In this document: piece after piece, positions 643-56,839 of the stretch
Numbering within the stretch: the stretch's first letter is position 1
Layout of the letters: every line of letters starts with the position of its first letter
Origin: Rhizodiscina lignyota
Taxonomy: Eukaryota
Assembly: GCA_010015805.1 (NCBI GenBank)
Contig: ML978122.1
Location: 1,832,453 to 1,896,452 of the forward strand
Direction: 5' to 3'
Length of the DNA stretch: 64,000 bases
Notes under the pieces: generated by a model
What the model was told of the DNA's origin: nothing
Database searches by the model: none
What the model saw: the letters and a program-made list of their open reading frames with translations, nothing else
Translations under genes and position numbers: made by a program

Positions 643-2542
643 CTATAGCTTAGTGCCCAAGTTCACGTGCACCTAAAGTATGTCAAACAATGCAAATCCC
701 TGGGGAAGGAGTTGTACTTACTGCCTTCTTTTGCGAGTACGCTTCCAATCCGGCTTCACCAAGCTCACGACCGATACCGCTCTGCTTGACGCCACCGAAT
801 GGGATGCGGAAGTCTGAGTCGTTGCTGCTGTTGATCCATACCATGCCAGCTTCGATCCTGCGAGCGACGCGGTGGGCCTTTGTGATGTTCTCAGTGAAGA
901 GGGCGCTTCCAAGGCCGTATGTGCTGTCGTTTGCCCGCGTAATGGCTTCCTCCTCTGTCTTGAAGGAAGTGATGACGACAAATGGGCCGAAGACTTCCTC
1001 GCGATAGATCTTCATGTCGTCTTTGACGTTGGTGAAGACCGTAGGGGCAATGAAGAATCCCTTTCCACCAACGTCCTTGAAAGGCTCACCACCCATTTCC
1101 AGTTTTGCGCCCTCGCTCTTACCAGCCTCAATGTATGACAGGACGCGGTCGTACTGCAGCTTCGTAACTTGTGGGCCCTGGAATGTATCGTCCTCAAACG
1201 GATTGCCGACCTTGCTGGTAGCCTTCACGTGCTCCTTGAACGCGGCAACAAATTTGTCGTAGATGCCTTCCTGGACGAATACACGCGATGTGGCTGTGCA
1301 GACTTGACCTTGGTTGTACATGATTCCAACGTGTGCCCACTTGACAGCCTGATCCAAGTCTGCATCGTCAAAGACAATGAGCGGGCTCTTTCCTCCTGTT
1401 TCCAGGGTAATATTCTTCATGTTGATGGCGGCCATCTTCATGATTTCCTTTCCGGTTGCGGTGCTTCCAGTAAATGCAATCTTGTCAATGTCGAGATGAG
1501 TGGCGATGGCAGCTCCAGCAACACGTCCATAGCCGTTCAGGATGTTTACAACGCCTGGCGGGAAGCCAGCCTCTTTGATTAGATTTGCAAGGTAGAGAAT
1601 CGAGAGAGGAGTCTGCTCAGCTGCCTTCATAACGACAGTGTTGCCGCAAGCCAGGGCTGGGCCCAGCTTCCAAGCAGCCATGAGGAGAGGAAAGTTCCAT
1701 CTACCCACCAATTAGCAAAATATTGAAGAGTGCGTTCAAGCTATCCGTACGGAATGATCTGTCCGCAAACGCCGATAGGCTCGCGGACGGTATAAGCGAA
1801 TTTGGCAGGTGTCGTCTCAATTACTTGACCGTGAATCTATAAATCAACACTTTAGTCAAAACTTCTAGGCTTTTGTAATCGGCTATACTAATTCCTACCT
1901 TATCCGCATAGCCGCCATAGTATTTGAAGACGTTCGCAACCTCGGTAAGATCGTCGTTCAGCGCGACTGAGTATGCCTTGCCTACATCGTAGAATGTTAG
2001 AATTTCGTCCGGGCGCTCACTAATCGATAAGTAATCGAACGGGAGAGGCGAGCAATACCATTGTCCCATGTCTCGATTGTTGCAAGAGTCTCTTTGTGCT
2101 CTTCAATAAGTTGGTACAGCTTGTACATCAGATTTCCCCTCTCGGTGCCGCCAATGTCTCTCCAAGACGGGTCTTTGAATGCGTTGCGTGCTGCCTTTAC
2201 GGCATCATCGACATCGTCTGCGCCTGCAGCGTGGACGGTGACGATATCTTGCTCGGTGCTAGACACGTGAGTCTCCTTGCGGCATTTATGATAGAGCATT
2301 ACTCACGCAGGCGAAATGCTTGTTATCTTCTCCCCACTCTTTGACTTTACCCACTCATTGTTGATGAACAAACCAGTTGGCTGGGTGTATTTCCTGCCAT
2401 TTGGCGCCGTCAGCTCTACCGCGAGATCGGACATGCTTCTGATTTGCTTTTTGAGGAATACAACGTGGAATTGGGTTTTGGCGAGAGGAGGTCTGGAGAA
2501 AACGGAGGATGAATGAGAGATGAGCAGACGTCTGAAGATCAT
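643..2542 (-). CDS. NAD+-dependent aldehyde dehydrogenase (ALDH1/2-like), 6 exons; second in-frame ATG at 2434
   Basis: Motifs IIPWNFPLLM, FTGSTATG, TLETGGKSP, catalytic Cys in NQGQVCTA, EEVFGP and PFGGVKQSGIGRELG. Five GT-AG introns join the ORF fragments: about 2306-2259, 2058-1982, 1898-1837, 1750-1701 and 721-673. The last exon reads VHVNLGTKL-stop. Confidence 0.95.
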
Positions 2543-6067: not shown

Positions 6068-9000
6068 TCAGGACCCCTGCCCGTTCCAGACACGGTTTGC
6101 AGCTTCCTCTGTCCACCAATCATCCGAACATTCGTCCAATGCAAGAAGGTTCTGTTGTAGGTTGCTGCCAGCGGTCGGGATCGAGCCTCCTGTAGCAATG
6201 GAGCCGGACCCGGACGGACCAGTGCTCGCCTCTGCCGGTCCACTGCTTTGCGCTGCCAAAATCGGATCTAGCAGTTGCTGGCCACCAAATTCTGGCGCTT
6301 GTTGATCATTTAATCCCACTTCCTGTGCGGATGTTGGAATGAGATTCTGATTCACCCCCGAGTCAACGGGCGACTCTTCTCCCATGGCCCCTGTCATGGA
6401 GTCCCAATCAACGTAGCTATTCACCGACTGTGGTGTGGCATCAGCCGCTCCTTGGACACTTGGGTCAATGCCAGAATTGAGAAAAGCTCTGATTGCTGTT
6501 AGGTTATCCTCTGACATATCTTGCGTGTCTAGCGTGTCTGGAGTCGGTGGTATCCCTGCGTTCGTATAGCTGATCTGGTTTGCAGTTGACGGGACGGATG
6601 CTTGCGCGTTCCCATGGCCAAGCGATCCCAAAGACACTGACCCCGCGGGTGGAGTAATGGAGCTTGCTTGTAGGACGGCTATATCTGAAGCATTGTCGAA
6701 CTCCTGAGCGGCGCTGCTATGGAGCTGTTCATCTACCTCCTGGCTGTCCTGGACTCCATTCGCAAGCGGACTGCCTTCTGAAGCATGTTGATCTCTTTGG
6801 TCGATCTTCGCCAGCGCTTCCGACGTACTCAAGGTCGATCCTGCTGGCAAGGCAGTATCAACCATGGGAGCACCGTTGCTGAGCGCGTTCCGGTTCGTAT
6901 TCTCTGGACCTCCTTGGATCATACCCGCTTGCATCATGTCTGGCTGTGGCACATTGGCCGCCGGACTCGGTGTTGAATCAGAAGTAGCTTTGGATGGCTG
7001 ACTTCGCAAAGTCTCATTTTGCGCCTGACGCTGTCCGGGGTGTCGGGCCTGGTAATGCGCTTCTCGAAGAATCGCCTGTACTTGCTGAGGAGGTCGAGGC
7101 ATTATATCTTCTGGAAGACTTGGACGATTTTCAGGCATGTTTGGTGTTGCTGCCAAACCAATGCTCGGCGGAATTGATCCTGCTGGCAATGCGACACTGC
7201 CTATCGTGGAAGTACCGTTGCTGAGCGAGTCGCTGCTAACTTTTCCTGACCCTTCTTGCATCATACCTGGCTGCAGCCCGTTCGCCGCAAGAGCCTGTCC
7301 CGGATGGGACGGAGCCTTGTAATACTGATTTGGCAAAAGCTTCCTTTGCACTTGCTGCTGTCCAGGATGCCTGGCCTTATAATGGGCTTCCCGAAGAATT
7401 GCTTGTTCGGGTCGAACAGGTCGGGGCACCATATCTCCTGGGAGACTCGGACCATTTCCATGCCTGTTTGCCGAAGCTGCCACACTAGTGCTCTGCGGCA
7501 TTTGAACGTACCCGGAAAGATTGGAGAAGTCCGTGTTTCCCTGGTGCATCTGATGACCCTGGAATGAAGGATACGGATTTCGTGACTGGTCTGGAACCAA
7601 TTGTCCTCCCAGTCTATGAGGATCTTCGTCGAAACGATGATTGTGGCCAGCCAGCATGTAAGGTCCAGACGAGGCTGCGCTTAAAGCTGCATTGAAATTC
7701 CCATTTTGTGATTGTATGTTCGCGGCATTGACGAACGACTGCTCTGAGCAATGCACGAGAGACTCATCTTGACTCGGATTTTGCAACTGCTGGATAGCGC
7801 CTCCTCTATAGTCCATTGATGTTCCCCGTCTCTGTGGAACAGCAAATTGTTGAATTTGGGGCGTCGGCTGAGGAGTGTGGCTCTGCCGGTCTTGCGTCGC
7901 CTTTGTAGAGTCTAAGTTAGACGAGACGTCGTTGCGATAATTTTTGCTTCTTCTTTGTTGAGAAACGTCAACATTTGCAGTGCCTTCTTTCAGAGTCTTC
8001 GTCATATCTCCGCGCTGCTTGTTTGACTTTCGGTATCGTCCTTTGTTCTGGTCTGACTATTAGTCTTTTCCAACACAGCTTTCTACAGATCACTCGTTGG
8101 CTTACTTGGATATACCCACATGGGGCTGTGACGAGTACCCTGACGTGAAAGATATCCTTCATGATATCGTCACAAATCGACTTCCATCGCTAGAAATATC
8201 ATGAGCTTAACATCCTTCAAGAAAAGTACACAACTGACTTACTCTGCAGCCGTCCTCAATGATTTCAAACCGCTCAATCAGTGGCAAGTCCTCTTCGCCA
8301 CCCTGCTCTTCAACATGGCGCAGTTGGTACTCCGGCAACTGGCACCCGAATTTATGGTGCTTCATGATTTGTATCTAGTGCATGTCAGCAGAAGCTCCTA
8401 TCAGCAAGGAACGCTACACTTACGACCACCTCGTATGCCTTTGCTTCAATGTCTTCTGGGGCATATGGCCGATACATCGCCCAGGCTTGGTATGCGGGCG
8501 AAACGGTTCGCCGGTCACCCTTATCACCAACGGTATCTTCTATCTCGGAGAGGTCGATCATCGCATTATACAGCCTTGTGACGTACGGCCGGATGTTCTT
8601 GGACATGGCTGATACGTCCTCCGGCTCCTTCTCCGTCTTTCGGTCACCGTACAGGTGTTGCCTCACTTCATCAAAATTCGAGAAGAGACCGGAAAACTCC
8701 TTGTAAGGTTCGTGGATTGGTTGCTTCTCCTGCCTCTGCTTCTTTCGGGGCGTGGCATCATAGATGGTCTGGAGGGTCTGATTGTTCTGTGACAATGGAG
8801 TGGTCTCGTCGCTCGGCTGCGAACTGCGCGCAGTTGGGGTAGGTGTCGCTAATGACAAAGGAGTAATGGGAGGTTCAGGTAATCGAGAGTAAGGTGTCAC
8901 ATACTTCCGATTCTCTATGGAAGCCGCTGGAGCGTGTATGGGATCGTTCACTCCATCATCGACATATACGCCGCCTGGAGTTTTCCGACGTCTGGCGTTC

Positions 9001-9200
9001 GGATCTGTGAACGCGTTCGGAGCTACTTCAGCGTCAGTTGGAGCAGCAATACCAGCAAATATCGCTGGAATTGCTCCATTATGCGCTGAAGAAGCTTCGT
9101 ATGCAGAGTATGTGTCATCTTCCTCCAGTGGGAGTGCGTTACGGGCTGGTCGCTTGTATGGGTGATATCGGGAATCATTTGTCTGCTGAGTGCGGTCCAT
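6068..9200 (-). CDS. Hypothetical protein (~990 aa) with an unrecognised conserved domain and a long Q/P/S-rich tail; paralog of 16105-17954
   Basis: Exons 9200-8424, 8374-8243, 8189-8106 and 8047-6068 splice in frame through three phase-0 GTAAG..AG introns. This links the 271-aa and 645-aa ORFs. Confidence 0.8.
6836..7450 (-). repeat. Diverged internal tandem duplication (~109-aa period) within the CDS
   Basis: PSLPGDMVPRPVRPEQAILREAHYKARHPGQQQ...ALPAGS versus PSLPEDIMPRPPQQVQAILREAHYQARHPGQRQ...ALPAGS; the starts are 327 nt apart. Confidence 0.9.
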
Positions 9201-9971
9201 GATTTCGGTTTAGAAAGAGTATTCGAGCTTAAGGTTTATTCTTTGCTTGAATGTTTGGTCGCGATATCTCTCGGGGTTGTGGCTTCGATGTGCGTCGATA
9301 CGTTGGTGTGATTGTAGATGTTGCAGTTCAGGTGTATGCTGATGTTTGAAGAATTCGAGGTAGAATGAAGTGGTTAAGGAGAAGGTGGAGTTATTCGAGA
9401 AAGAGATATACAAAGCCTTCACGTGTGTTGGACCACATCTCACGTCTCCTTTAACACATCGTGTGTTGAGTGTGTCAACTGCTGGTATCAGTTTGTGTTA
9501 CACACTGTTGCGCTCCTTCAGACACGGATAGAGTCGCAACTCGAAGCTCCATGACTTTGTGAATATGTAATCGATGATGGATGTCGCAAATACATAAGCA
9601 TCTGCTCGGAAAGCTATGCGCTTGACCTCATAGACGTGATCAAGAGTCTGTGAGGGAACGATATCGACCGTCTACTCCACAAGGTCTCGACAGAGGACAA
9701 CACATATCGCACAAATCACACAAAGTGCGAACAGGAGCCCTCGCAAAATACCAAGCCATGCTCTGCTTGTTTAATATTTTCCATTTGTACAGATATCAAG
9801 CATATTTCACTTCCAAATTCATCGACAACCATCTGTGTGATCACTACATCCTTGACAAGCTTCACCGCATGGGAAGTAGCCTAAGTAGGCTCATTACAAG
9901 AGACAAGGAAAGGTAGTAGCTGCAAAAGTCTACGTCTGTTTAATATTCTCTATAAGAATTTATCTCCGTAT

Positions 9972-11208
9972 CTAATCATAGTAATTCTGCACCTTCAGGC
10001 CTTTGAACTCAAAGCTAGTGCCTTCTCGCTTCGTCAGCACGGTTTTGTAATGTACATCCTTCACGCGCGCGCGCACGTATGCGGTTCCAGTGACAATGGG
10101 CGCTTCGGTATCCTGATCCTCTTCTGTGAGAAGACCAAGACGATCAAGGAGCGGTGATGGCACTGCTTTCATCGGGGCATTGTCTCCTGGCCTGGAGAAG
10201 TACAGAAGGCCGAGACGAGCGATGTCGATTTGGTCGGCGGGCGGAGTCACGACACGGTGGATAGTCGACTTGATGAAGCCTGTAAACGGGAGTCAGCATT
10301 GCAGATTTGCATACAGGGGCGAAGGGACATACCCTTTGTGAGAAAGCTCAGAGTGTCTGCTGCGTTGCAAGTGATACCGCCCTTGACAGGTTTCACATAC
10401 TTCCATTCGCCTTCCGGGGTGCGGATCTGCAGTCCAGCCACATGCTGAGAGAATAGCAAAGTCAAACTCCCAAAATCAGTGTGGCCGCCTTTCGAGTATG
10501 CTTGTGCGCGGTCCCACTCTTCCTTTGTACGAACATTGTAGATCATATAACGCAGATGATCGTCCGATTTCGCGTCGTAGGCGTGCAGGTTGTAGATGTA
10601 GTCCTCTGGGAGCTCCAGAATAATGCTCATGAGGTTGAAGAGCTTACGAGCCACCTTCTCATGAAGGTCTCTGTGGAAGCTCGCAATTTCCTCCCAGTTC
10701 TCTTTAACGATCTCATGGCGTGGCTCATCTGCTAATTGAGGGATGGGCTTGGGAATGTTGAGCTGCTTGGCGTCAGTACAGATGTCCTCGCGCGTTGATG
10801 CAGACTGACCATTTCAACATTCTCCTTGACACCGGTGTCACCAATCCATCGGGAATTCTCTCGGTACCCAAAGTATTCTCCCTCAGCAAAGTTACATGGG
10901 TATCTGCGCTTCTCCTCCAATGGCTGCTTGAAGAAAGTATTTCCAATGCTGAATTGTCGGAGGACGCGCTCGTCGTCTATTCCGGTATTGACAACGACCC
11001 AGAAGCCAACTTTAGTCACAGCATCATACAGCTGTTTGGCAAGTTCCTGTTTACCGCCGGGTTCATCATAACGAGACAGATCTATCTCTGCAAGTGGTGC
11101 CCAGTCAAGCTCCTCTTTGGTCGTTTCCGGCCGCGCCCATGAGTTCAGCTCAATGCTCTTCGTGACTGCCGGTACGGGCAATGGCAGATCAGCAATAGAT
11201 GGTGCCAT
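9972..11208 (-). CDS. 2-oxoglutarate/Fe(II)-dependent dioxygenase (IPNS/DIOX_N-like), 3 exons
   Basis: N-terminal LAEIDLS...AVTKVGFWVVVNTGI, HxD in GGHTDFGSLTLLFSQ, AGLQI, distal His in STIHRVV and R in ARLGLLYF. Introns at about 10809-10763 and 10332-10280. Confidence 0.92.
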
Positions 11209-12133
11209 GATGAACTGGTAGTAGGAGAGTTTTGTGGAAGCAAGAGATGACACTGATTGCAACCGAGGGGTTGAAATAGAGGGACGGAGATGACTGATTC
11301 GGAAGTGGTAGAGGAGCGGGGGGAATACAAGGTACTTACTGTTCGTGCCGTGTGAAAGCGGGGAGGTTGATACAGCTGTAGGTATGGAAGCATCTACTGC
11401 AGCACACAATCCAATGCTTCTCTAACGCCATCCGCGCGATCTCTGTTATCTACGGCGTAGACTCGGGGCATACACTACAAAAGCTTCAAGGAGCGCTGCG
11501 CTAGCAAGCATCAGACATCAGACGGCTTTTTTTGCCCACTTTTACTCATACACCCGAGGATTTGAGTTACAAGAGGGTGTATACTTTGGCCTTTACGAAA
11601 CTGAAGAGCTGAAGGACATACGGGATCGCTTTATCTATTCCCAATTTGGAATAGCGTCGAGGGAGACAAGGGTAAAAATTTACCAATTCATCTTAACAAT
11701 TAACATACCACCTCGGGAAGCGATGACAACGTGTCAATGTCTCGAGGTCTCCATGGTGAAGACCTCGAGGGACTCAAACGTGTGGACCTAGAACAACCGA
11801 TCAACAAGAAAGGGCCGGAATGACTGGGGGTCATGGCTATGGCTGCGGAAGTAAGTCCAGCACAAGAGCCGGGATATTGAATGGCACAATTACTCCTTGA
11901 CTCTGTCGTCTTTTTAATCTCGCATGGCGCAATACTGGTAGCATCTGGATGAGTACTGGAATCAAAGCCGTCGGTACACAATGGATGTGGTGCCGCAAGC
12001 CTTCTTGAATCTGGACCGGGGGAGGCTGATAAGTACGGAACGATCCCATTCAAATTTTATAGGTTTCATTTGCTTTCGCATCTCTTAAAGCCGATCTGTT
12101 CTTGTCGTTATACGTCAAACCCTTCGGGACACC

Positions 12134-13665
12134 ATGGAAGTTGATAAAGGGCCGGCGGAAGTCATTTCTGCCCTGACAGCTTCCGCACACCTCAGCAATG
12201 ACGACAGCACTGAATCAGATCTTGAGTACGATCACAAGTTCAGAAGAAGAGCTCTACTAAAGGTCGATTTCTGGCTTGTTGGCTTCTACTCCATGGTATA
12301 CATCTTTCGAGTTATTGATTCGTCCAATTATTCCAATGCAGCAATCATCAACCTTGAGCGGGGGACTGGAATCAAGAAAGAGCTCCACTTCGACCCGAAC
12401 CAATGGGCTTGGACGTTATCCATCTTTTCGTACAGCTACCTGATATTCGAGCCGACCAATACGCTGCTCTTGAAGAAAGTGCGCCCCTCTCGATGGATGT
12501 TCGTCCTCATTTTGGCTTGGGGCATATGTGCATCATCTGTTGCTGCGGTCCAGGACTTCCAAGGCATGATGTGTGCTCGCTTCGCAATTGGGATGGCCGA
12601 AGCTGGCTTTTATCCTGCTGTGCTCTTCCACATGGCCTTCTGGTACACTCCCGCAGAGATGCCATGGCGCATAGCGGCCTTTTACTCGGTGGGGCAGCTT
12701 TCGAGCGCACTCAGTGGCCTTTTAGCGTATGCCATCGGCTTCATGGATGGGCTTGGTGGGCTGGCAGGGTGGCGATGGCTGTTTCTCCTTGAGGGTCTCC
12801 CTGCCATGATCCTCGCGGTGATAGCGCTATTCGGCCTACCAGACTACCCTGAAACGGCCCGCATGCTAACGGAAGATGAACGAACCTTCTTTTCGCGACG
12901 CCTTCCATCTACAGCACCGTCGGGCAAGACTAAGCGCAGCTGGGATTGGAAAAAGCTAGAAAAGCTAATGGCTGATCCTTCAGTCTATACCTTTTCCCTC
13001 TACTGGCTTGCTCATGGAATTGGAGGTTTTGGTATCAGCTTCGCTTTACCAACTGTTATCTATGAGCTTGGCTTTACAACTACGTCTCTCTCTCAGTTGA
13101 TGAACATAGTGAGTCAAGAGTCTACTTACATCATGACGAAACTGGCTAACGTGTGGTAGCCTCCTTACGTGGCTTGTTTCCTCTTTTTGAACACTTGTGG
13201 ATACATGCTCCATAGGAAGTGGATCCGCCCTTGGACTACAGCAGTAGCAAGTATGTCAAGTTTCGCCATCTTCCTCACCATACGCTAACTTGGCCTACAG
13301 TCGAGGGCACTACGATCGTCTGCTATATCATCCTCATAACCGTCCCGAGCGCAGTTGTAAGATATCTGGCCTTGATTGTTGCGGTGTCATGCGCTGGATC
13401 TGCATACCCAGTTATCTGGCCGGAGCGCATACGGGTACTTGAGGGCACTGTCGCCGCTGGCTTCGGTATTGGCTTGACGAACGCGTTCGCGCAATTTGGT
13501 GGTATTGTTGGCCCTCACGTTTACAGCACCGTATTTGGGCCGCGATATCGAGTTTCGTACATCATCTGTCTTAGCTTCCTCGTGGTGTCTATCAGTTCCA
13601 TCCTGGTGTCATGGCTTATTATTTGGCGCAGGGACAAAAAACGCGCAGCATTGGGAGAAGAATAG
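12134..13665 (+). CDS. MFS transporter, anion:cation symporter (allantoate/Dal5-Tna1-like) family
   Basis: LLKVDFWLV, IDSSNYSNA, FEPTNTLLLKKVRPSRW, RFAIGMAEAGFYP, GLAGWRWLFLLEG and LPDYPETA motifs, multiple TM segments and two introns (about 13109-13159 and 13251-13300). Confidence 0.92.
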
Positions 13666-14849
13666 GATGCAGCAGTTCGACGATTTGGTCCTTGACTGGT
13701 CCGAAAATACCAGATAGATGATTAAATTCAATGGAGAAAATGAAAGAAGTTTGCATCTGTCAGCGCGGGTGAAGAGCTTATCATCTGAAAAGATCTTGAG
13801 ATCCTGAATGTACAAGACCTCTAATCTGTGATCGAAAGGAAATGCTACATACGACCCCTCAGAATGCACCAACAGGTTTCCAAAGTTCTGTTTATCTAGA
13901 TCCTCTAATAGCTACAACGCAAGATTGGAGAGTAATGCCAGAGACCAACGATACCACTTTTGTGAAAGCACATCATCCACTTCCTGCCTTATTGGTTCCA
14001 TGAAGAGACGATTCAGGAACTTGTTAGTTCGTCACATCAGGCAACTGTGATGACAAACAACCTTGAAGACTACCCGAAATCCATGCGGAATTTGAACGAA
14101 TTGGCGAACGCAATTGGCTCGTTGAACTCTCAGTCGTACGCCGTATGTAAGGGCCCGAGCCGAAGGCCGAAGAAGCGAAGGACGATGCCGCATCGAGTGA
14201 GAAATTAAGTCCGCAAGAGAGGAAAATGGCACAAATGTGCAGATGTGGACTGGTTAGACATTGCTGAGAAAAGATATTGGAAATCCCTTTTTGCCAAGCC
14301 GGAAACGGGATCTGGAGATCCCGGAGCCAAAATGGTTGATAGATACGTTGATATTTAACCGTTTATAAACGTATTTTTCTATATTTCTGATTGAGTGCTA
14401 ATTTGATAATTATACAGCTAGTTCAGTCTGATTAGCGTGCTGCCTGGCGTTTAGGGCACATTCATACTAGGCTTATTCTGGTTAATTAGATTTAGCTGAC
14501 CCAATCGATATGTTGAGCCCCTATGATGGCGTAAACCACTTGAATTTTATCGTGAAAATATGCCATCCAACCATACGCATAAATCCGGTACGTAAATTTG
14601 AGCCAAACATACGTTTTTCGGAACAGCAGCCTAATTCCAATTGTGGGGAGCCTCCTGTAACAAGCACAATACAGCTTCTGTGAGCTGCATAGTAGCTTCT
14701 CCTCGCTTGCAGCAATTGTGCAGGGTGGAATTACGTCGCATCTATATAAAGCATCCGGTAGAGTTCTTGTTCAAGATGGTCACTCGACAATTTTTAAACA
14801 TTTCTTCTGTCACTCAATCCAATTCCAAAGTGGGCAAAGTCGTACTGTC

Positions 14850-15607
14850 ATGTCGAAAACAATCACTCTCTATGGCCATGGCCCGACTGCCAATCCAGTG
14901 AAGGTGGCGATTATCTTGGAAGAGCTTGGGCTGCCTTATGAAGTCAAGGCTCCAGCTGATATCAAAGCGGAGCCATTCATCTCGCTCAATCCAAACGGTC
15001 GCCTCCCTGCAATTGAGGACCCGAACACTGGCTTCAACCTCTTCGAGGTATGCTGGAACAGAACCATACTGGCATTCGAAAGCTAATCAATATGTATAGT
15101 CTGGCGCTATCATCGAGTACCTGATCAGGAAGTATGACACGGATGCAAAACTCCAGTACACCACCGAGGTTCGAATCCTGTTCTGAAACCTGTCTGCCCA
15201 TGCCTATGCTAACGATATAGCCTGAAAACTTCTTGACTCAAAGCTGGCTGCACTTTCAGATGTCTGGCCAAGGACCATACTTTGGCCAGCTAGCATGGTT
15301 CAAGGTTTTCCATAAAGAGCAGTTGCCCTCCGCCATTGAGCGCTACGGCAACGAGGTGAAGCGTGTGACTGGTGTCATTGACGCTCATCTGAAGAAGCAG
15401 AAGACGAAATACCTCATAGGCGACAAGCTTACATATGCGGACTTGGCATTCGTCCCATGGTTCAATGCGCTGGGCTTTATCTTGCCAGAGTTTGACTGGA
15501 AAAAGGAAACCCCGGAATTTGCGGCATGGTTTGAAGGCCTTCTGAGTAGACAAAGTGTGCAGACTGTTCTGGCAAAACCCGAGTTCCAGCGGCAAATGAA
15601 GCATTGA
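14850..15607 (+). CDS. Glutathione S-transferase, Ure2p-like class
   Basis: NPVKVAIILEELGLPYE, LNPNGRLPAIED, LFESGAIIEYL (across intron 15048-15099), WLHFQMSGQGPYFGQ and YLIGDKLTYADLAF. The second intron is at about 15169-15220. Confidence 0.94.
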
Positions 15608-15778
15608 ATGTTTCGCAGCTGTGAGTGACCAATACACTGTGCTCGACGAAAATTATGTACGTAGCGCTCTAATCCACGATGAGGCACGGTGCCTAGCAGA
15701 CAGGAGCACGTAGTCAACTTGATCGTACTCAAGCTGATTAGATTATCAATCAAGCATCACTTTGATTTGACTCCAGAC

Positions 15779-16028
15779 CTCATGAGAAGGCTGCGAAGAC
15801 CGTCGTGAATTTTCATCATTCCTTGTGTGTCTACCCAAATGCCGCAAGCCCAATCGCAAACCCAATCGCAAACCCCAGTATGAGTCTTTCCCAAACTCCA
15901 CTTTCATTTACTCCACATCTCATGAAGAGACTTAGAAGGGTGTCGTGAACTGTCAACCTTCCTCGAGTGTCTATCCCAAACGCCGCGAATCAAACCATTA
16001 ATCCCAATACGAGTCCCTCCCAACACCT
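15779..16028. repeat. Two diverged ~120-140 bp direct repeats in the GST/hypothetical-gene convergent spacer
   Basis: ctcatgag..gtcgtgaa..ttcc..gtgtcta.cccaaa.gccgc..ccc..ta.gagtc..tcccaa recurs at about 15779 and 15919. Copy 1 also contains a doubled cccaatcgcaaa. Confidence 0.75.
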
Positions 16029-16104
16029 TCTGAGAATGACTAGTCATCTTTCAAAAATGCAGCTACGCTATCGCCTAACAATCCATGCAGCACTGTGGCT
16101 CAAC

Positions 16105-17954
16105 CTAGCTCATCTTGAACCGCTTGGAGTCAAGGGATTCCCTGTGGACCTTGTTGTTAGGACGGCGACCACGGCCTTCCTCATCATGGCGCTCTTCGAA
16201 TAGACTATCGTCGCTCTCTGGGGAGTCGTCGCACTTCCGCTTACCTCCTTCATGAGATAGGGGCTCATCGCGCACATCAGATAGCGAATGTCCGAACATA
16301 GTAGTCGGAGTGTAGATTAAGGGAGTCAGTGGGGGCAGTCCATGAGCTCCGGCCACCGCTCGGGTTGGAGGAGGAAGCTTTTGTGGTTCGTTCAGCATTT
16401 GAGGAGATTGGAAGCCCGTGAACTGAGTGAACGCAGCCATTGCTGAGTTGGGTGGAAGGGAGGAAGGGAAATTGTAATCTAGCAAATTGGCGGAGGGCTC
16501 TTCGTGATCCCTAGACGCTCCTTTCTTGGTGGCCAGGTCGAGCATTGGCGGAGGCTGTACCCTCTGCGAGAGCGAAGAACTATGAGTCAATATAGAGTCC
16601 AGGCTATCTGAATGATGATGCATGCTGGAGACTGGAGAGGGTATGCCGTGAGGTTGTAGCTGTCCGTTCTTGCCGCTGTCGGGGTCCTCCCCATGCTCCA
16701 CGGAACGGGACATAGGTCGTGGCATCACATAAGCGTTACTGTAGCCAGATACACCTATTAGATGTGCTGATGGCGTGTACTGAGGCTGAGATTGCACTCC
16801 GAGGGAGGTGGGATAAGTCGTTACGGGATGGGGGTGCAATGTGGTATGCGAGGGTGGTAGGTTCGAGGGTGGTCGATTCGAGGATGGTAGATTCGAGGTG
16901 GGAACGACAACCGACTCTGTCGAAGAGTGACCATGCGAGCGACCTGATAGCGTTGCTGGCTCCTTCTGGCGATGGAGACCCATTGCAGCTTTGCCTTTCG
17001 CGATCACACCACTCCGTACTTCGTTGATGTTCTTGTTCGACTTTTTGGTCTAGTGATGACGTTAGATATCCTGATGAATAATGGGGAATACTTGCAATTA
17101 CCTTCAACGCGCATAGAGGCGCGTGGACAAACGCCTCAGTCTTGTTCCTCTTCAAAACATCCTCACAGATAAGTTTGTCAATCTTAAAGCAAGTTAGTAT
17201 GATTCTATGAACTATATGATTACGCGACCATGTAACTTACGCGGAGGCAGTCGCGCATAGTGTTGAAGCGATCATCGATGCTAAGATGCTTATCTCCGGG
17301 AGCCATCTTCAAAGTTTTTTCGAACTTTTGCAAAGGGCCATCTTCGTGACGTCTAATTAGTGCTTCCTAGGTGCCATTAGCATTAGACACAGTTGATCAA
17401 ATGGACTCTGTATCTACCAGCAAAAGCCAAGCGGCTGCCTCGAAGTCCTTGTCGGCGATGAGGCCCTTTGCCACATTCAGGTACGCATTCGATGTCTGTT
17501 CGCGAACGTCTATGGTATTGATCATTGCGTAGTACAGCTCCCCGACATAGTGGCCTGCATAATGTTTGTAGCGGGAGATGGCTACTGCCTCCTCTGGATC
17601 TTCGTCTAGTTCGACGCGGAGATTCATATGTTCGTAGGCTTCATGCCCGTTCTGGAAGAAGCCTTGGTAATCGGGATATCGAAAAACCCCGCGTCGCGGT
17701 TCGTTGTTTACGGAGAGTGGAAGAGGCAATGGTTGAGAGTCCGGAGACTGGGTATGAAGCTGCTCCCCCTGCGCATTGCTTATGTGGAGAGGTCGGTATG
17801 GCTGAGACTCGGGAGGATCGTAGTGGACTTGGTCACCGTATCCGTTAACCGTATCAGGTGGTAGAAGGTAATGCTGAGGCTCATAAGGTGGATGGTGGAG
17901 CTGCTCATTGTGTGCACCAACCGCACCGATATCCTTTTGGACCCCGGAAGGCAT
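16105..17954 (-). CDS. Hypothetical protein (~562 aa) sharing the unrecognised domain with 6068-9200; P/S/H-rich tail with a basic end
   Basis: Exons 17954-17418, 17366-17241, 17182-17102 and 17049-16105 splice in frame through three phase-0 introns with CTAAT/CTAAC branch points. Confidence 0.8.
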
Positions 17955-19750: not shown

Positions 19751-21931
19751 CTACTCCACTAGCAAGCTTTGAAGCCTTGCTTCCGTTGCAATGACCTGTG
19801 AATGTTTGGTTAGTCACTAGTCTGACAAGGGTCCATAAAGAAACTCACATCCAAAGCTTGTTGAACTTCAAGTACTTTTCTGCAATCACTGAGCCAATCT
19901 CTGCTGATAACCTTTGCCCATCCTTGCAGCCCGTTTATTTCCCTCGCAGCAGCATCCAAATCTCCCTCCTCTAACCACATCTCCGTCCGCGCAAGGACGC
20001 TCTCAACATCTTGTCCGACAGGCAAGCCTGATTTCTTGAACATGAACTTGCTCAAAGCGTAGCTGACCATGTGGCTGGCAATGCCTGCATTCTCAGGTAG
20101 CAGAGCAGCCTTGCGAATCTCCGTGGAGACTCTGCGGAAGCGGTCGATCAGCTGTGCCGGCGTTGGGATGCCTCTTTGGTACGCGGTAGGATTGATAGAA
20201 GCAATGGCAGCATTGATAACAGGGTCGTCGTTTGCGACTTCCTTTAGGGCTGCGAGCTCGGTGATGAATGGTTTGGGTCCATCGGCCTTTAAAAGAGTGG
20301 CGCGAACAGACTCTACCGCAACGAGTAAATGCTGTGTCTGCAAGTTGGAGTCGACAACGCTGTTCCACTCTCCCGTCAATTTTTCCAGCTCCTTCACGCC
20401 AGCAGACAGCTCGTCCAACTTTCCCAGGCGGGAACTGCGCTCGGTCTCCACACGGTCGCGAACGGTAGTGTTGAATTCTTTACGCATTGCAATGGCTTGC
20501 TCGAGCAGCTCATTCTGGAGCTTTTGGTCAAAGAACTGCTTCGTAGCATTGAGCTCACTTTCGAGCTTGCTCTCATATGCCTTCGACAGCTTCTCGCGTT
20601 CGGCCTCATACTCATCTTTCCAGCGTGCTTCCTGGTCTTTCATCTCATTCTCAAGACGCTGGATGAGTTCCTTAGCAGCATTATCGAATTCGGTATGATT
20701 ATCGCGGATTTTGTCTTCCGCAGCCTTGACCTGTACCGCCTTCAGAGTCTCGATGTTCGATACGACCTTGCCAAGGTCGGCCTTTGCCTTTGCAATCGTC
20801 GAGTTATATTTTCCGGCAGCATTGTCTGCATTAACCACAGCGATGATGTCGTTGAGAATCTTGACTACGTCTTGAACGATCGGCTCCTCCGCACTTGGTA
20901 CGTTCAAGTGGTCTATCTGGGAGGCAGAAGCTGTGGACTTGGCAGGCTCTGGAGCAGGTGCAGGCTTAGATTCCGCTTGGGGAGCTCCCGGAGCCGGCTG
21001 TGTAGCCTTTCCCGTCGATGATTTGGATTGCTGTGACCCGGACTCTGGCGCAGCCGTGGATGGCGCAGTGCCCTTCTTTGCTTCCTGCACAGCTTGCGAC
21101 CTTTCGGCTCCACTTGCTTGACCAGGCGTTTGCTTTGCAGCTGTGGAGTCAACCGCGCTCATATGGCTGCCGACGGCACCTAGATCGCTGGTCCTTCGGC
21201 TGGGCTCGTCCGCAACATGAGGTCGAACACCACCTCGGCCGGGAATTGTGACTTTACCCTCGCCTCTTATCTGCGGGTGTAAACGCGTCTCTCCTGTTCC
21301 ACCAGGGAATCTCTTGCGGAACTCTCGCTCTTCAAGGAAGCCCACAATATCTTCTCCGAATGGCACATATTCTGTGAAGAAATCATGGAAGTTGTCTGCC
21401 CGCATGGCATACCACGCGCCTCCGCCATATCCAAGGGCTGTGAGAATGAAGAGGGCGAGAATGAAGTTTCTCAGTCTCCTTGGCTTTTTGGGTGGAGGCG
21501 GAGGTGGCGCGGATGAGGTACTGGCAGTTCCAGTTCCCGTGGGAGGAATTGGTGTTGGCGCTGGATTTGAAGCAGGATTGGAACTTGTTTGCGCTGGGGG
21601 TGGTGGAGGCGTTTTGGGGATATTCTCGGGAGCGCTCGTAGGGCTGGCAGGATTTGTGGGTGAGAGGGTGGGCGGCGGTGGAACGTTTTGAGGAGCTAGT
21701 TGGCTGGCAGAACCTGGTACAAGTGTCTCATCAGGCTTCTTCTCGTCCGCAAAGGTCCTCTGTTGCGTGGTTCAATGTCAGCATTAGTCTACAGAAAGCT
21801 GTTGGAAGTTTTCGGACCTTTGAGACCAGCGCAGTGGTTGGGCGCTGCGCGACGAGCCATTGAGCCTGCTGAGGACGCCTAGTAGCTCTAGGGGCGAGGT
21901 AACTACCTCTCCGAAGAGAGATGCGCAGCAT
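19751..21931 (-). CDS. MIC60: MICOS complex subunit Mic60 (mitofilin)
   Basis: Arg-rich mitochondrial presequence MLRISLRRG..., Pro-rich linker, TM segment followed by ALGYGGGAWY..DNFHDFFTEYVPFGE, coiled coil, and mitofilin C-terminus GDLDAAAREINGLQGWAKVISRDWL...EARLQSL. Two introns. Confidence 0.95.
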
Positions 21932-25915: not shown

Positions 25916-28544
25916 TTACAGATGCCAATTAAACGGATTGACGCTCCTGCCGATGATGCCATGTTCATCCAAGTGAACCACGTTCTTGTTGTCACGCATG
26001 CTCTTCAATCCCACCAGTTCTCGGTTCAAGACCCCAATATCAGTGTTCTCAGCATGTTCGTCGGGCCTCTTGGAAGCACCCTCGAGACTTGACGCTTCAC
26101 CGTTTGATGCCTTTGACATTCCGCTCTTCGATGCCATATCCCTGGTATCGGCAGAAGTTGCCGCGCCAGGAGATTGTGTGGCAGGTGTTCCTCGTGCAGA
26201 CGATGTACCTCTATCCACCGGCATTGCTCGTGCAGAAAGGCCTTCGCCATAAGGCATGTCTCGATCAGGCTGTGTCTCGTGCGCAGAAGGACTCGATGCC
26301 GTAGCTAGTCTGGCCCTTACGGGGAATGGACCGGATGTCCGTGCCGTGGGGGAAATTTTGGGAGTCACAGTGACATTTGCACTTTGGTAAGTTGACCTTG
26401 GCTCAGGGCCATTGATTCGGTTAGGCGGCGAGTTCGAAGATGCCTGCACCGGGTGGTTGGTAGAGTTTCGGAATGTAGGACGAGAGGCTTCGCGATATGG
26501 AACGGCCTGGGCGGCAGACAGGCCACCTGAATGACGACTCAGATACTCTCGTCGCTGGACCCGTTGCTCCCTTTGAGGGTCCTCGGTGATTGGGGAATCC
26601 TGGCTGAAGTTGAATCGCTTCTTGTAGGGTCTGTTTCGTTTCTTCGGCGGACTGTCGTTCTCCTCGCGTCCATGCTTTCGCCCCACCGAAGCGTCGAAAG
26701 TGCTCGGAACTATTGTCGAGTGCACTTGCTCATGTTGCTCACTCGTCTCCACATCAAGACGAGCCTGAGTCGTTCGGGTGTCTGCACGGACACGTTGATC
26801 ATGAAAGTTGCCTCGATATGGGCGATGCCTTGCCCTCCCGTTATTTGAGTTGCTGAACTCAGATGAGTGCGTTGTGTCCCGAAGAGGGGCATTGCGTTCA
26901 TCCAATGGGCGAGGAACACTCAGCTCCAAATCAGAGTCATCGCTGCTTCGAAGTCTCGCCAGGCCTGCCGCCGAGATCCTACTCCTAGAGGACGCCGGCC
27001 TACTGCTATCCGGAGGCAATGGATCTTTCGATCGGACTTGGCGGTTGACAGGCGATGAACTCGGCGATGAATGCATACTCGGAGGCAGGACCAAACTACT
27101 CTCGGGCCGAGGAGGTTCACTAGACGGAGGCCATTGCTCACTGCTAAACGTAGATCCAGCCTCATCTCCAGCCTGAGCGTCCACGTCCACTTCGACATCA
27201 CTCTCCTCACTGTCTGACATAGAATTTTCCGCAGCTGCTCGAAGTTCTTGTATGAGGATACTCGGAAGATTGTACGCTGGAAAGGCAAGTCCAGGTTTCG
27301 CTGGATACCACGAATGTAAGCGACTGAGGATATTTCGTTGTTCGATGTCGGCCAGCATATCAGACTTGATTTTTGCTGCGTTGATCCATGGCTGGTGAAG
27401 ATTGCTGGAATCCAAGCTTGCATCCACCATCTTTGACGACTCTCGGTCAGCCTGGACTTCCAAAATTGTGTCCGCAGTGTCGACTATTTCCATATCTTCT
27501 GCTCCTGCTGCAGCCTCCCGGGAAACAGATGTGAGCTTCTCTGTAGTCTCACTTGCTTCAGAGTGATTCTCCAGACTAATATATCCTCGTTCAAGTATCT
27601 TCAAGAGATTTCCCTGCTTGTCCGCGTCCGTACTGGCATATGGACGATACCCAACCATAATATGCCCTGGAGCGCGAGGGGGTGCAACTGGCGCCATCGA
27701 TGGGAAGTTCCTGGATGGGGCCGATGGTTCACGTCGAGCCAAGTCAGGGATTTGTGTAGCGAACCTTTCTTGGGTTGCGAACCAAGTATCCTGTGCAGGA
27801 AGTATTTGCGATGCCACTGAAGCAGGGCTTGGTATTTGCTCATCTTGCTGAGTCTGGGGCTTTTGCGGTGGTGAGTCGTATGTTGCGGCGCTACCAGATC
27901 CAGAGAGCTCTTTTAAGAGATTGGCGATTGCACCATACTTGTGTACAGGCTCTGGAGTGCCGATTGGATCTTGCTCAAGGCCTAGATAGTTGAACGCTTT
28001 CACAAGAAGTGAGAGGTGCTGGTTCGGATCTCCATAGGACGTCGCAACGATCTCGAACCCTTTGATAATCACAATACAGCCCTCGACCTCTCTGGTGAAC
28101 TCCCTGTTGTGCTTGTGCTTGAAATATTTGGTAACCTGAGTAGTAAACTTGGCGTATATCGAAGTTGCTCCATCTGAGATAACAGCCTGGACATGCGGGG
28201 CTGTTTTGACGAACTTGTGTAGTTAGACCAATCTACAGGCAGCAGATATTCGATGTAGGATATCTTCATTTCAAACTTACGCGGACAATCTGGGCTTTTA
28301 ACACGCGGCCAGAAACGTGAGATTTTCTGATTCGCAAGTTGCTATCGTCCCAGTCGAATTCCTCGTTCAAGCCACGACTGAGAGCTTCTTCCACGACATC
28401 ATCTCCCTGCTTCGGATATGCGGACTCTTGCTCGGGCTGCAAACTTTGCGACGAATCACTGTTCCGTTTCCAGACAAGCGCAACTCTCAAGTCATCCTCG
28501 ACTAAGGGCCTGATCCACGGAGGAAGAAGGGCCTGTGAAGTCAT
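25916..28544 (-). CDS. Shelterin TPP1/Est3/Tpz1-like protein (N-terminal OB fold, long disordered tail)
   Basis: LPPWIRPLV N-terminus, then KAQIVR|FVK..AVISDGATSIYAKF..F..KHNREFT...GCIVIIKGFEI, which resembles the Est3/TPP1 OB pattern. Intron 28280-28214 joins the 92-aa and 718-aa ORFs. Confidence 0.7.
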
Positions 28545-28766: not shown

Positions 28767-29153
28767 TGGCCGGGGATTTGCCGAAGATTGGTCGAGCCAC
28801 CTGCGCCTGGCAAACGTCATTGGCAGTCAAGGTTGATACTAGCAAATACATCTGCAAGATAAATTCCTGAAGCTTCTAAACGTATCTGAAGCCGGGTCTC
28901 GAAACGCAGCTCCACCTTGAACTCTGAAAACTCGTCCAAGACCTCCCATATCGACATACCCGACCACGCCCTGCCAACCTCTCCGCCTTGCTTTTCAAGA
29001 GCCCGTCATGCTCCGCCGCCTCAATCTCTGGATCACTGAAAGTGCCACGGCGCACAAAAGATAACCTATCGCTTGAGCAGCAAACTCGCTCTGAGATGAG
29101 AAGGCCAAACTCAGAATATTAGCAGAGGGCGTGGAATCGGTGTACTTGAAGCC

Positions 29154-32100
29154 ATGGCACCTAAAGCGCCTCCAGGTGGCCCAGGCCATGCACTCCCCTC
29201 TGTCCAAACAAACCGTTCATATGATAGGCGGGGCTCCTTTGGCTCGATATCATCTCGAAGACTACCAAACAGCGAGGCTTTAGCCTCCACTCTCGATCAC
29301 ATCCATACCAACGCCTCGCAATCGGAAGCGCTGACAACGTTTGCCGAATATGCTCCTCCCCCTCGATCGGCAGCTGGATCAGAAGCCAAGACACTTGCAG
29401 GAGAGCTTGTTCAAGGAGGAATCAGTGGATTATACAGCCGGCTTAAGGCGTCCGTCGGCAGCTCGAAGGAATCTGGTGTGGGCAGTCCGACCGCAACGAC
29501 GAAAAGTGTCGACAGTGGCGACGACGCATCCGTGAAGAGTCTGAAGCTCAAGCTTGGCCATAAGAGTACAACTTCTGTTGGAACCATCGAGTCATCGCCT
29601 GTAGTTGTCTCTCCACAACCATCGCAGTTGAAATCTCCAGCAAGTTCAAAATTTCCCGAGGGCCAACTAAGTACTGGCCGATTATTACCTGCATCCTCTA
29701 GCGCGTCATTGAAATCCGGAAGCTCTGTAATTGATCATGCTTCCCCCGTAAGCTCGAGGCCCCAATCAAGACCTGCATCTTCATCAGTCGACCTATCAAA
29801 TGAACCAATACCAGCACGACACGTCGGTGGGGTACAGAAAACATCCGAGAATATACCTACAATCGATACTCCAAAGACGAGCAATACTCTCGGGGAGCGA
29901 CCTGCAATCCCAAATACTTCGAGTAAAGTGAAAGATGCGGATCTGTCCATTGATACCAAAAGCGGAAGTTCGCGGCTGTCGAAGGACCAAATTGGCGAAT
30001 CTGAGACTCCTATTGGCCTACCAACCCCAAAGATTCTCCGGACTGGAGAAGCACCGTTGTCACGCGTGAGCTCCAAAGTTTCTGAATCTTCCACTTTAGC
30101 GTCTCCAGTTAGCGGCGCGCTTTCTGTAGATTCCAACACGAGAATGGGCTCCATAGATGCCGAGCTTGGTGCTGAGCTTACACGTTCGGAAACTACTGAG
30201 CGGCCGCCTCTACTTCATGTGAGCCAGTCTCATTTGCCAGGTTACAGGGCTTCGAGAGCAACATCCTCCGATGGAGATATGAGCTCAGTCACGACTGTGG
30301 CCGCATCTCGGCAGGCAACTCCTGTCACAACAGCTGAGGCGGCCAAGCTCCGCTCTGAACTTGCAAAAGCTGCAGACCAAAATGTTGGACAAATGCGCAG
30401 CAGGTTACTAGCTAAGGAATTCTGGATGAGAGACGAGAATGCAAAAGATTGCTTCTACTGTGGCGATACCTTCTCAACTTTCCGAAGAAAGCACCATTGT
30501 CGGACTTGCGGGCAAATATTCGACGCCAAATGCACATCGACAATACCAGGCAAAATATTTGGCATTGGCGGAACTGTGAGGGTCTGCATACCGTGCGAGC
30601 ACATCATTGACGGCACCGAGGACGATTCATCGATTTATTCAGAAGAAGATGACATCTACTCAATACCAGGCGATTCTCATAGTCCCGTTGATGAGCATGC
30701 CCGCGAACAGCCGGCAGATATGGGAACGCCGACAATTGGTATTCCTGTCTCACGAAAGTCAGCAGATCAAACAAAAAGACGCTCTGCTGTTCTGGAGTTT
30801 GATGGCCAGCCTACTTTGGCGCGACCAAGCTCATCCAGGTCGCTAAGGTCCTTAAGTGGTCGCCCGCATACCCCTCATAAACGCCATCACTCGCGGCATA
30901 TGTTCACAAGGGGCATGAAATCGTCAAATATTGATCGGGCACCTTTTCAAGGACAGGACTCCGAAGGCGCTGGTAAAGATTCGCTTCTCCCAGCATTCCA
31001 CCACGACAATATCATCGATCCCGATCTGGCTCCGTTCCTATCTGATGAGGGTTCAAGCGATGATGAGACTGTCAGTCTTTTCGCTACGTTGGATGGCGAC
31101 AAACCCCAGTCTCCAGCTCGAGTAGATGGAGATAAGAGCGGTTTCAACGCGTTGTTCTCCTCTTTACGGAAGGGCAAATCTAGGGGCGATAGAAGTCACA
31201 CTGGTGCAAGTCACGGTGGTCGTGATACAGATGCTGCGAGCATTTCCAGCCGACATCTCACACACCACCACTCTCGGAAACGGAATGTCAGTGTAAACAG
31301 CATCTCACACGCACGACACTCGCCTCGACGAACAAAGAGCAACAGCCTGCTCAAAGGATTTCCGATGCCGTTTGGCTCATCGCTAGCGTTGCCCCTTGAG
31401 CCAGACTCGCCCATTATACGACCTCATTCAAGTCACTCCAGGATTACAAGAAGCGCATCCATGCGTGGAGAGTCAGCGCCTCCTGTAGAACTCAATCATG
31501 CAAGTCTGCAGCATGTTCGGAAAATGTTGAAACAGATGTTGCAAGATGGTGACATACCAAGCGCCCGAAGCTGGGAAAGGGCGTTAATGCCAATTCTGCT
31601 CAAGTCCACAAACGAAGTCAATCCTGACATTAGACGAAGAGACTTCATCGACATTCGTCACTATGTCAAGCTGAAGAAAATAAGCGGAGGCAAGCCAGGG
31701 GATACTACCTATGTCTCTGGAGTGGTGTTCACAAAAAATGTAGCCCTCAAGACAATGCCACGGAGCATTTCTCATCCCCGAATTATCATCGTCACCTTTG
31801 CAATTGAATACGCTCGGCATCAGCAGCATTTTATGAGCCTTGAGCCAGTCATCGCGCAAGAGAAAGAATACCTTCGAAATCTGGTACGGCGAATCATTGC
31901 ATTTGATCCCCAGGTCTTGCTTGTCCAGAAGAACGTGTCAGGTCTAGCATTAAAACTCTTAGCCGAGGCAGGCATTGCTGTGGTCTACAATGTCAAGCGA
32001 TCGGTGCTCAATGCAGTCTCGAGGTGCACACAGACAAAGCTGATTTCGTCAGTTGACAAACTCGTTTTTGACCCTTCTCAAGTTGGCCATTGCGGCGGTT

Positions 32101-55553: not shown

Positions 55554-56839
55554 ATGGCGTTCCCGCAACAATATCCGCGCTACGGCCAATGTGACAGCTT
55601 CTTCGTGGAATCAGAAGATGGCTTAGCTGCCATTCGAGCAGAGGAGCGAGAGCGCTCACGCGTGGTCTCGAGAATGCGGCAACGGTCAATGGCAGAGGAG
55701 TTGTCAAGAGCGACTGCTGAGGAATATCAAGAGGACGTTCTAGATCACATGGAGCGGATGGAGGTAAGAATACTGCATACGTGCTATGGAACAATGCTAA
55801 ATCCCAGAAGTCTGAGACTCTGCCCGACGTGAGCTCAATAGACATCCAGACCGAGATCCAGTGGTTCATGAGACCCTACCTACTCGATTTCCTCATCGAA
55901 GCTCATACGGCATTCCAACTGCTCCCAGACACCTTGTTCCTCGCAGTCAATCTGCTCGACCGATATTGCTCTCGACGAGTGGTCTACAAACGTCACTATC
56001 AGCTCGTCGGATGCGCTGCCCTCTTAGTTGCGTCCAAGTACGGCGACAAGAAGGACCATGTCCCACAAATCAAAGAACTGAAGTCAATGTGCTGTGGTCT
56101 CTACGAAGAGGATATGTTCATACAGATGGAACGACACGTTTTGTCAACACTTCAATACTACATCGGACACCCAACGGTCGATAGTTTCCTCCAGATCGCC
56201 CTATCAGAGGCCTCATACGATCCTGAAGTCGAACACATGGCATGGTACATATCCGAGATCGCCTTGTTCCACCGTGATTTCGTTTCAATGCGGCCGTCCG
56301 TCATCGCCCGCTCTGCCCTCGCCCTGGCCCGATGTATACTGGCACGGTCTCAATCACGCCCACAAGACTGGGCTGGCTCGTACGATATCGGAACCGTCCA
56401 TCTCTTGTCAAACTACCTATTCCAACCTTCTGCGGTACTACAAAGGAAGTATGCCTCGATGCATCTTTCTGGTGTCTCCCACACAGTCGAAGGCTTCTTG
56501 GCAAGACAAGCGCAGCTTGCTCGCCAGCGCAACTCAGTATCCATGATGGAGGAAGAACACACTGTTGAGCATGTTGCACCTAAGCCCTCAGGCATGCCGC
56601 AGACACCGCAGAAGCAACAAGTGAACTCAGTGATGCAATATGGCGCACTTACACCGCCAATCACTCCGGACCACGAGAAATTTGGCGAAAGCGGATACGG
56701 CACAAACAATGGCATGTTTCCACGGCTACCTCACACGCCATCACCACTTTCTGCTAGCCACCAACCTCCACAAGGTCAACCGCCTATCACATATACATCC
56801 TTCCCTCCGCCGTCCTACGTCCATCAGCCACACTGCTGA
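55554..56839 (+). CDS. G1/S-type cyclin (Cln/Ccn1/Puc1-like)
   Basis: EYQEDVLDHM, cyclin box WFMRPYLLDFLIEAH..TLFLAVNLLDRYCSRR..YQLVGCAALLVASKY, and PEST tail with LTPPITP. Intron 55764-55810 has a CAG-AAG tandem acceptor. Confidence 0.94.

Follow-up and report, generated by a model that had tools for sequence, protein, structure and literature searches.

What do two nearby genes of Rhizodiscina lignyota, a wood fungus of the Dothideomycetes (order Aulographales), encode, and what might their products do in the cell? Both genes, called A and B below, lie on the minus strand of a 64,000-nucleotide (nt) stretch of contig ML978122.1, referred to here as the window, with position 1 as its first letter. 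They share a helical domain of about 185 amino acids (aa), and this domain is an unnamed family of unknown function. A and B are paralogues of ancient origin; the protein family to which they belong occurs in the leotiomyceta, mostly in Dothideomycetes. That the genes, their paralogy and the unnamed family are all real can be regarded as nearly certain. As for the function, structure models suggest, as the best single reading, a nuclear regulator with a docking module resembling domain II of TFIIS, to which we assign a probability of roughly 0.35.

The initial annotation of this DNA, made from its letters, presented A and B as hidden genes. Both are present where it placed them (Table 1), and every peptide piece that it quoted was found in minus-strand frames. 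They are not hidden, however, because the public annotation already holds them as NA57DRAFT_52589 (993 aa) and NA57DRAFT_52593 (562 aa). Searches with the first exons returned one identical public protein per gene, both of them hypothetical proteins of R. lignyota. After splicing, A comprises 990 codons and B comprises 562, with no internal stops in either. All six introns start with GT, end with AG and fall between codons, in phase 0; branch-point-like motifs of the fungal type (CTAAC, CTGAC or CTAAT) can be read from the letters of the introns.

The predicted splicing of both genes is supported by comparison with the family. An independent hidden Markov model (HMM), built from 143 other family members with A and B excluded, matched spliced A with 143.9 bits (E 4.7e-46) and spliced B with 144.5 bits (E 1.6e-46). 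Each alignment runs in one stretch across all three junctions, with no gap at the exon borders, which provides comparative support for the splicing. The public model of B matches spliced B letter for letter. The public model of A differs from spliced A solely in the acceptor of intron 3, which is placed 9 nt upstream and adds the residues SDQ; two in-frame AG acceptors, 9 nt apart, occur there (window 8048-8057). The downstream acceptor, on which the above score of A is based, fits the family better and needs no insertion, because the version with SDQ scores lower (135.1 bits) and requires a three-residue insertion. The acceptor of the public model may be either a mis-annotation or an alternative acceptor.

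The similarity between the two genes proved to be significant. In a BLASTP comparison, spliced A and B share 52 of 202 positions (26% identity, 49.7 bits, E 3e-10), and every other segment has E >1. The three phase-0 introns interrupt both genes at matching columns of the alignment, just as had been proposed; on the family profile they fall at about positions 88-90, 134 and 161-164 in both genes. The duplication was also described as old, and the phylogeny bears this out. A tree built from 48 domains joins B to P0003 and P0005, two proteins from other sources (support 100/98), whereas A stands elsewhere, unresolved near an Aulographum protein; a FastTree of 145 rows agrees with this picture. 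A and B are therefore not recent duplicates. No third copy was detected within the window by the family profile, the next best open reading frame having E 0.3.

The shared introns are not a feature of the whole family, because two members on metagenome contigs (L001 and L002) have the entire domain in a single frame free of introns. The L001 member is 40% identical to the Pleosporales protein P0020. Either the three introns are old and the L001 lineage later lost them, or the lineage of A and B gained them ahead of the duplication. Evidence on whether linked pairs also occur elsewhere is weak. Glonium stellatum carries three paralogues, from three clades, on three separate contigs (8.6, 52 and 20 kb), which is weak evidence on linkage. 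Likewise, one family copy is present within a 12.5 kb stretch of L001, which is weak evidence on linked pairs elsewhere.

The initial annotation spoke of a shared domain of about 130 aa; a shared domain indeed exists, but it is longer, at about 185-200 aa. Its conservation begins approximately 45 residues upstream of the YVxxLY motif, with the pattern Y..[YF].G.F.....A..H[RL], and its signature reads G..R[LF]..L...K..C.D[VI]...V..AP...K..N...N..R. Among 145 family sequences, in the numbering of the B domain, K132 is kept in 100%, G97 and P151 in 99% each, R120 in 97%, N165 in 96%, A51 in 90%, L128 in 88%, C135 in 86%, N161 and E80 in 85% each, K158 in 77% and R168 in 63%. Both A and B match the whole profile of about 185 aa and keep G97, R120, K132, P151 and N165, which places them in the family.

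The last 35 residues of the domain form a helix with a mean net charge of +6.2, positive in 99% of the 145 sequences. Together with the conserved N165, this agrees with the earlier description of a domain that ends in a basic, asparagine-bearing helix. The core that precedes the helix is near neutral on average, with a charge of -12 in A and -8 in B. Sequences resembling nuclear localization signals (K[KR]x[KR] or runs of four basic residues) occur in 119 of the 145 members, which is a weak indicator; together with the basic helix, they are the sole basis for the nuclear location and DNA binding suggested at the outset. The helical nature of the domain, likewise proposed at the outset, is reproduced by AlphaFold2 models calculated from family alignments. 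These consist entirely of helices, and their confidence is high for both B (pLDDT 91.6, pTM 0.84) and A (pLDDT 89.8, pTM 0.81).

The two genes do not define this domain by themselves, as had been thought; they are two members of a considerably larger family. A profile of the A and B domains was searched against 1.84 billion representatives of clusters formed at 50% identity. It recovered 191 proteins at E ≤ 1e-3, nine at E ≤ 1e-10 and two at E ≤ 1e-30, the last two being A and B themselves. The family thus comprises at least 191 clusters at 50% identity. An HMM made from 50 sequences re-found 149 of the 150 listed matches, of which 145 span the greater part of the domain. Of 30 representatives that were looked up, 17 have an organism name, mostly from the Dothideomycetes. 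Twelve of these named members we take to belong to that class: Glonium (three proteins), Aulographum, Mytilinidion, Lepidopterella, Massariosphaeria, Lophiotrema, Stagonosporopsis, Boeremia, Curvularia and Didymella. An Oleoguttula member was checked and belongs to the Mycosphaerellales, also Dothideomycetes. Four weaker matches lie outside the class, in Cadophora (Leotiomycetes), Pleopsidium (Lecanoromycetes), Candelaria (Candelariomycetes) and Sarcosagium (leotiomyceta incertae sedis).

A second search, started from the Pleosporales member P0012 of Curvularia, found 129 proteins at E ≤ 1e-3. The best 120 of these 129 include proteins of Alternaria, Bipolaris, Pyrenophora, Parastagonospora, Ascochyta and Didymella, and none of the 120 carries a precomputed Pfam domain. 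A literature search by six locus tags returned nothing, and no paper on any member was found. In effect, the family spans major genera of plant pathogens, yet it is unnamed and lacks a Pfam model, and no literature on it could be found.

The initial annotation had not recognised the domain as a named Pfam family, and all searches of this kind point in the same direction. The eight exon pieces of A and B gave nothing above the cut-offs; matches of single exons to REC1 (E 0.011) and, within a tail, to Integrase_H2C2 (E 0.0013) were set aside as noise below the cut-off. Full-length A and B match no family above the cut-off, and neither do the homologues at the curated cut-off (0 of 73 in one set and 0 of 75 in another, 148 in total). 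The sole Pfam row in the set of 75 is BUD22, whose 20 bits fall short of its cut-off of 37. When matches up to E 10 were admitted in a scan of 100 members, no Pfam family was matched by more than five members. Since no Pfam family was found across A, B and the homologues, the domain, itself nameless, is all that can be recognised as folded in these proteins. A search of the ESM Atlas by features gave no usable match for B or for P0012, and the Atlas models are so poor (pLDDT 0.36 and 0.34) that their structural rows carry no meaning.

The structure models offer a more specific lead. In an exhaustive search with VIA-align against 48,161 PDB representatives, chains of the TFIIS domain II type ranked as the top six for both the A and the B model. 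The ten best structural rows come from one family and lead the next unrelated rows by 1.6-3.2 Z units; their coverage of the TFIIS-II target chains is 90-97%, and Z is under 8 throughout. The aligned extent is 90 of 97 aa for 3ndq (rmsd 3.5), 113 of 120 for 2dme and 116 of 120 for Bye1 (4bxx_X). In TFIIS chains bound to RNA polymerase II (Pol II), the match runs on through the basic helix, model residues 35-183 corresponding to TFIIS 134-254. The closest structural match of both models is therefore TFIIS domain II (TFIIS_M, PF07500, also called TFS2M), along with the TFIIS-like domains of Bye1, PHF3 and DIDO. Compared with TFIIS domain II, the fungal domain is longer by about 35 aa at its N-terminus and shows no detectable sequence similarity. 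Like Bye1 and PHF3, the proteins of the A/B family are without a zinc ribbon; unlike TFIIS, Bye1 and PHF3, they carry no PHD, SPOC or TFIIS N-terminal domain, as judged from Pfam searches of 148 homologues. KIX domains (of CBP/p300, Med15/Gal11 and the IRI module of RECQL5) show a looser likeness, with lower Z than TFIIS domain II; they cover only about 40% of the fungal domain and have no sequence match to it.

Two further resemblances were followed and set aside. A local likeness of 38 ungapped residues links the best-conserved stretch of the domain, R-L..I...L...K..C.DV, with helices 1-2 of Thermus CsoR (3aai), including the cysteine. The CsoR-like stretch corresponds to about residues 112-140 of the B domain (window about 17102-17300, minus strand; E 0.033). 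A CsoR/RcnR assignment (Trns_repr_metal) was rejected: no Pfam match to it recurs in 100 members, the cysteine is kept in 86%, and neither A nor B conserves a second ligand. No CsoR chain is among the structural matches listed, and the likeness is probably due to chance or to local analogy. The second case is the bZIP basic region, which has in common with the family domain a basic helix bearing a conserved asparagine and arginine. The consensus spacing in bZIP proteins is N-x7-R, whereas the family has N-x3-N-x2-R. Moreover, no Pfam bZIP match occurs in A, B or the 148 homologues, and no heptad leucines can be seen by eye after the basic helix. The basic helix is not of the bZIP type because no leucine zipper follows it; in Pleosporales, as read from the alignment, disordered sequence comes directly after it.

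The TFIIS-II-like matches gain meaning from what is described about Pol II. A 2025 review of the TFIIS family describes physical interaction of TFS2M-bearing proteins with Pol II, with structures that cover the binding of TFIIS and BYE1 (PMC12139180). The KIX domain of RECQL5 is described, in another article, as binding the lower jaw of RPB1 in competition with TFIIS (PMC12262184). It is these structural matches, taken with the Pol II literature, that make docking the best-rated reading. By inference, the core is built like TFIIS domain II and the TFIIS-like domains of Bye1 and PHF3, and more loosely like KIX; the proteins of the family may be nuclear, because such modules dock onto the Pol II jaw or onto transcription activators. 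In the proposed mechanism, the helical core would attach to the transcription machinery, most likely to Pol II or a co-activator. The basic helix could add a contact to nucleic acid or to an acidic surface, act as a nuclear import signal, or do both, and the disordered Q/P/S-rich tails would carry an effector or recruiting function. The activity expected is binding or competition, as in Bye1 and PHF3; stimulation of RNA cleavage is not expected because the family proteins are without the TFIIS zinc ribbon. The confident structure model thus provides a testable idea, namely docking in the manner of TFIIS domain II.

Several observations weigh against the docking reading. Foldseek found nothing in the PDB at E ≤ 1e-3. 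Its best match was a TFIIS chain (8uis_S), at E 0.31 and TM 0.29/0.41. The agreement between the A and B models is not independent, because nearly the same alignment stands behind both. PF07500 itself was matched neither by A or B at E ≤ 1 nor by the 148 homologues at E ≤ 1e-3. It is not among the 25 families listed of the 33 found in the scan of 100 members at E ≤ 10. Each of the eight others was matched by no more than one member, so that PF07500 could match one of the 100 at most. Searching PDB sequences with a profile produced only the CsoR match (E 0.033) and a low-complexity Clp-related chain (E 0.078). All named members of the family are labelled 'hypothetical' or 'uncharacterized' proteins. 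In addition, helical bundles have arisen repeatedly by convergence, and two proteins alike in fold need not bind the same partner.

A stronger version of the docking reading is decidedly unlikely, but its consequences would be wide. According to it, the models would reflect true descent: the domain would be a highly diverged homologue of TFIIS domain II (TFS2M) and would form, in filamentous ascomycetes, a third class of proteins that bind the Pol II jaw, beside TFIIS and Bye1. Such a class would include several ancient paralogue lineages without PHD, SPOC or zinc ribbon, equipped instead with a basic helix and long disordered tails. Its members would compete with TFIIS at the polymerase, tuning the elongation of particular sets of genes. 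The above review gives TFIIS and BYE1 as the only fungal TFS2M proteins (PMC12139180). If true, a third, lineage-expanded class would change this two-protein picture and supply new regulators for Dothideomycete biology. If, on the other hand, the resemblance of fold is merely convergent, the family is still a clean new domain of unknown function and a candidate for a Pfam entry, which is useful but ordinary.

Other explanations compete with the docking reading. It is possible, if rather doubtful, that the proteins act outside transcription, as RNA-binding or condensate scaffolds or as cytoskeletal or membrane adaptors, in which case the TFIIS-II likeness would reflect a common helical arrangement. 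RNA-binding and condensate proteins typically have basic helices and disordered Q/P/S-rich regions, and the domain has no sequence link to any known family. This explanation has to account for ten best structural rows from one family, with their lead in Z and their high coverage of the targets, and neither a signal peptide nor a membrane segment can be seen by eye in the sequences. The reading offered earlier, which saw here a new family of sequence-specific DNA-binding transcription factors, appears unlikely. In such proteins, the basic helix would read DNA, the core would position it or dimerise, and the tails would activate transcription. The charge of the helix and the conservation of N161, N165, K158 and R168 fit this, as do the frequent sequences of nuclear-localization type. 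Fungal transcription factors are usually built from a folded domain plus long low-complexity tails, and the Pleosporales members have an acidic-aromatic C-terminal motif of the kind seen in activation domains.

Against DNA binding stands the lack of any Pfam DNA-binding family in A, B and the 148 homologues, as well as the acidic core of both A and B and the missing heptad-leucine zipper (by eye). In the structural search, moreover, the top matches are protein-docking modules (TFIIS domain II and KIX), with no DNA-binding fold among them. Finally, the whole case could be an artefact, that is, a chance similarity, or decay of one or both genes into pseudogenes with mis-called introns. The less common donor of intron 1 in gene B (GTAGAT) is in line with this, but the explanation is highly improbable given the frames that stay open over 990 and 562 codons, the matches of about 144 bits to an independent HMM, free of gaps at the exon borders, and the family residues kept in both genes. 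The AlphaFold2 models are also confident across the junctions, and the independent public gene models agree.

Beyond the domain, long low-complexity regions flank the folded part, as read from the sequences. The claim of disordered, unrelated tails stands in so far as no Pfam family matches them; their low complexity is a reading by eye. The tail of gene A contains a tandem duplication of about 109 aa (Table 1), whose two units are 47% identical by BLASTP (E 2e-25). Tandem Repeats Finder detected no repeat at the DNA level in this tail, and the duplication is visible at the protein level alone. In Pleosporales members (for instance P0012, P0020 and P0034), the C-terminal 75 residues hold a pair of acidic-aromatic motifs, vSLADiE ... 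F(E/Q)xFWNxQxGVQxFsF, which an HMM finds in dozens of members of the clade. This pair may act as an activation or partner-binding motif. The same HMM does not detect it in gene A or gene B. The C-terminal end of A (LALDE...VWNGQG) had been considered as a version of the motif and was dropped, since the HMM ranks A no higher than shuffled tails.

Table 1. Positions of genes A and B, of their parts and of surrounding genes in the window; the two metagenome members are given in the coordinates of their own contigs.
Feature	Position	Strand	Details
Gene A	6068..9200	-	public model NA57DRAFT_52589 (P0001, 993 aa), hypothetical protein
Gene A exons	9200-8424, 8374-8243, 8189-8106, 8047 (or 8056)-6068	-	
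Gene A intron 1	8375..8423	-	49 nt, GTAAGT...CTAG, phase 0
Gene A intron 2	8190..8242	-	53 nt, GTAAGT...CTAG, phase 0
Gene A intron 3	8048..8105	-	58 nt, GTAAGC...CCAG, phase 0; public model: intron 8057-8105
Gene A conserved helical domain, coding span	7949..8705	-	P0001 residues 166-367, family profile match; split by three introns
Gene A tail tandem duplication, ~109 aa	6842..7507	-	units ~7507-7181 and 7180-6842; AILREAHYxARHPGQ in each
Gene B	16105..17954	-	public model NA57DRAFT_52593 (P0002, 562 aa), hypothetical protein
Gene B exons	17954-17418, 17366-17241, 17182-17102, 17049-16105	-	
Gene B intron 1	17367..17417	-	51 nt, GTAGAT...CTAG, phase 0
Gene B intron 2	17183..17240	-	58 nt, GTAAGT..TACTAAC..AAG, phase 0
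Gene B intron 3	17050..17101	-	52 nt, GTAATT...CTAG, phase 0
Gene B conserved helical domain, coding span	16963..17678	-	P0002 residues 93-277, family profile match; split by three introns
L001 family member	9653-11383	+	24-kb metagenome contig; whole domain in one uninterrupted frame
L002 family member	1171-2298		metagenome contig; entire domain in a single open frame
Region between A and B, with three unrelated genes	9972..15607		Pfam matches
2OG-Fe(II) oxygenase	9972-11421	-	Pfam
MFS transporter	12089-13665	+	Pfam
Glutathione S-transferase	14661-15607	+	Pfam
Mitofilin/Mic60	19813-21771	-	
TPP1-like shelterin domain protein	25919-28222	-	
Fab1/PIKfyve-type kinase	29100-36530	+	FYVE, Cpn60_TCP1, PIP5K
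HET-domain protein	37552-39726	+	
Cyclin	55721-56836	+	

The genes that lie between and around A and B show no sign of a secondary-metabolite cluster within the window. Besides those given in Table 1, the window holds an aldehyde dehydrogenase, an amidase, a WD40 protein and MFS transporters, and these are ordinary housekeeping surroundings.

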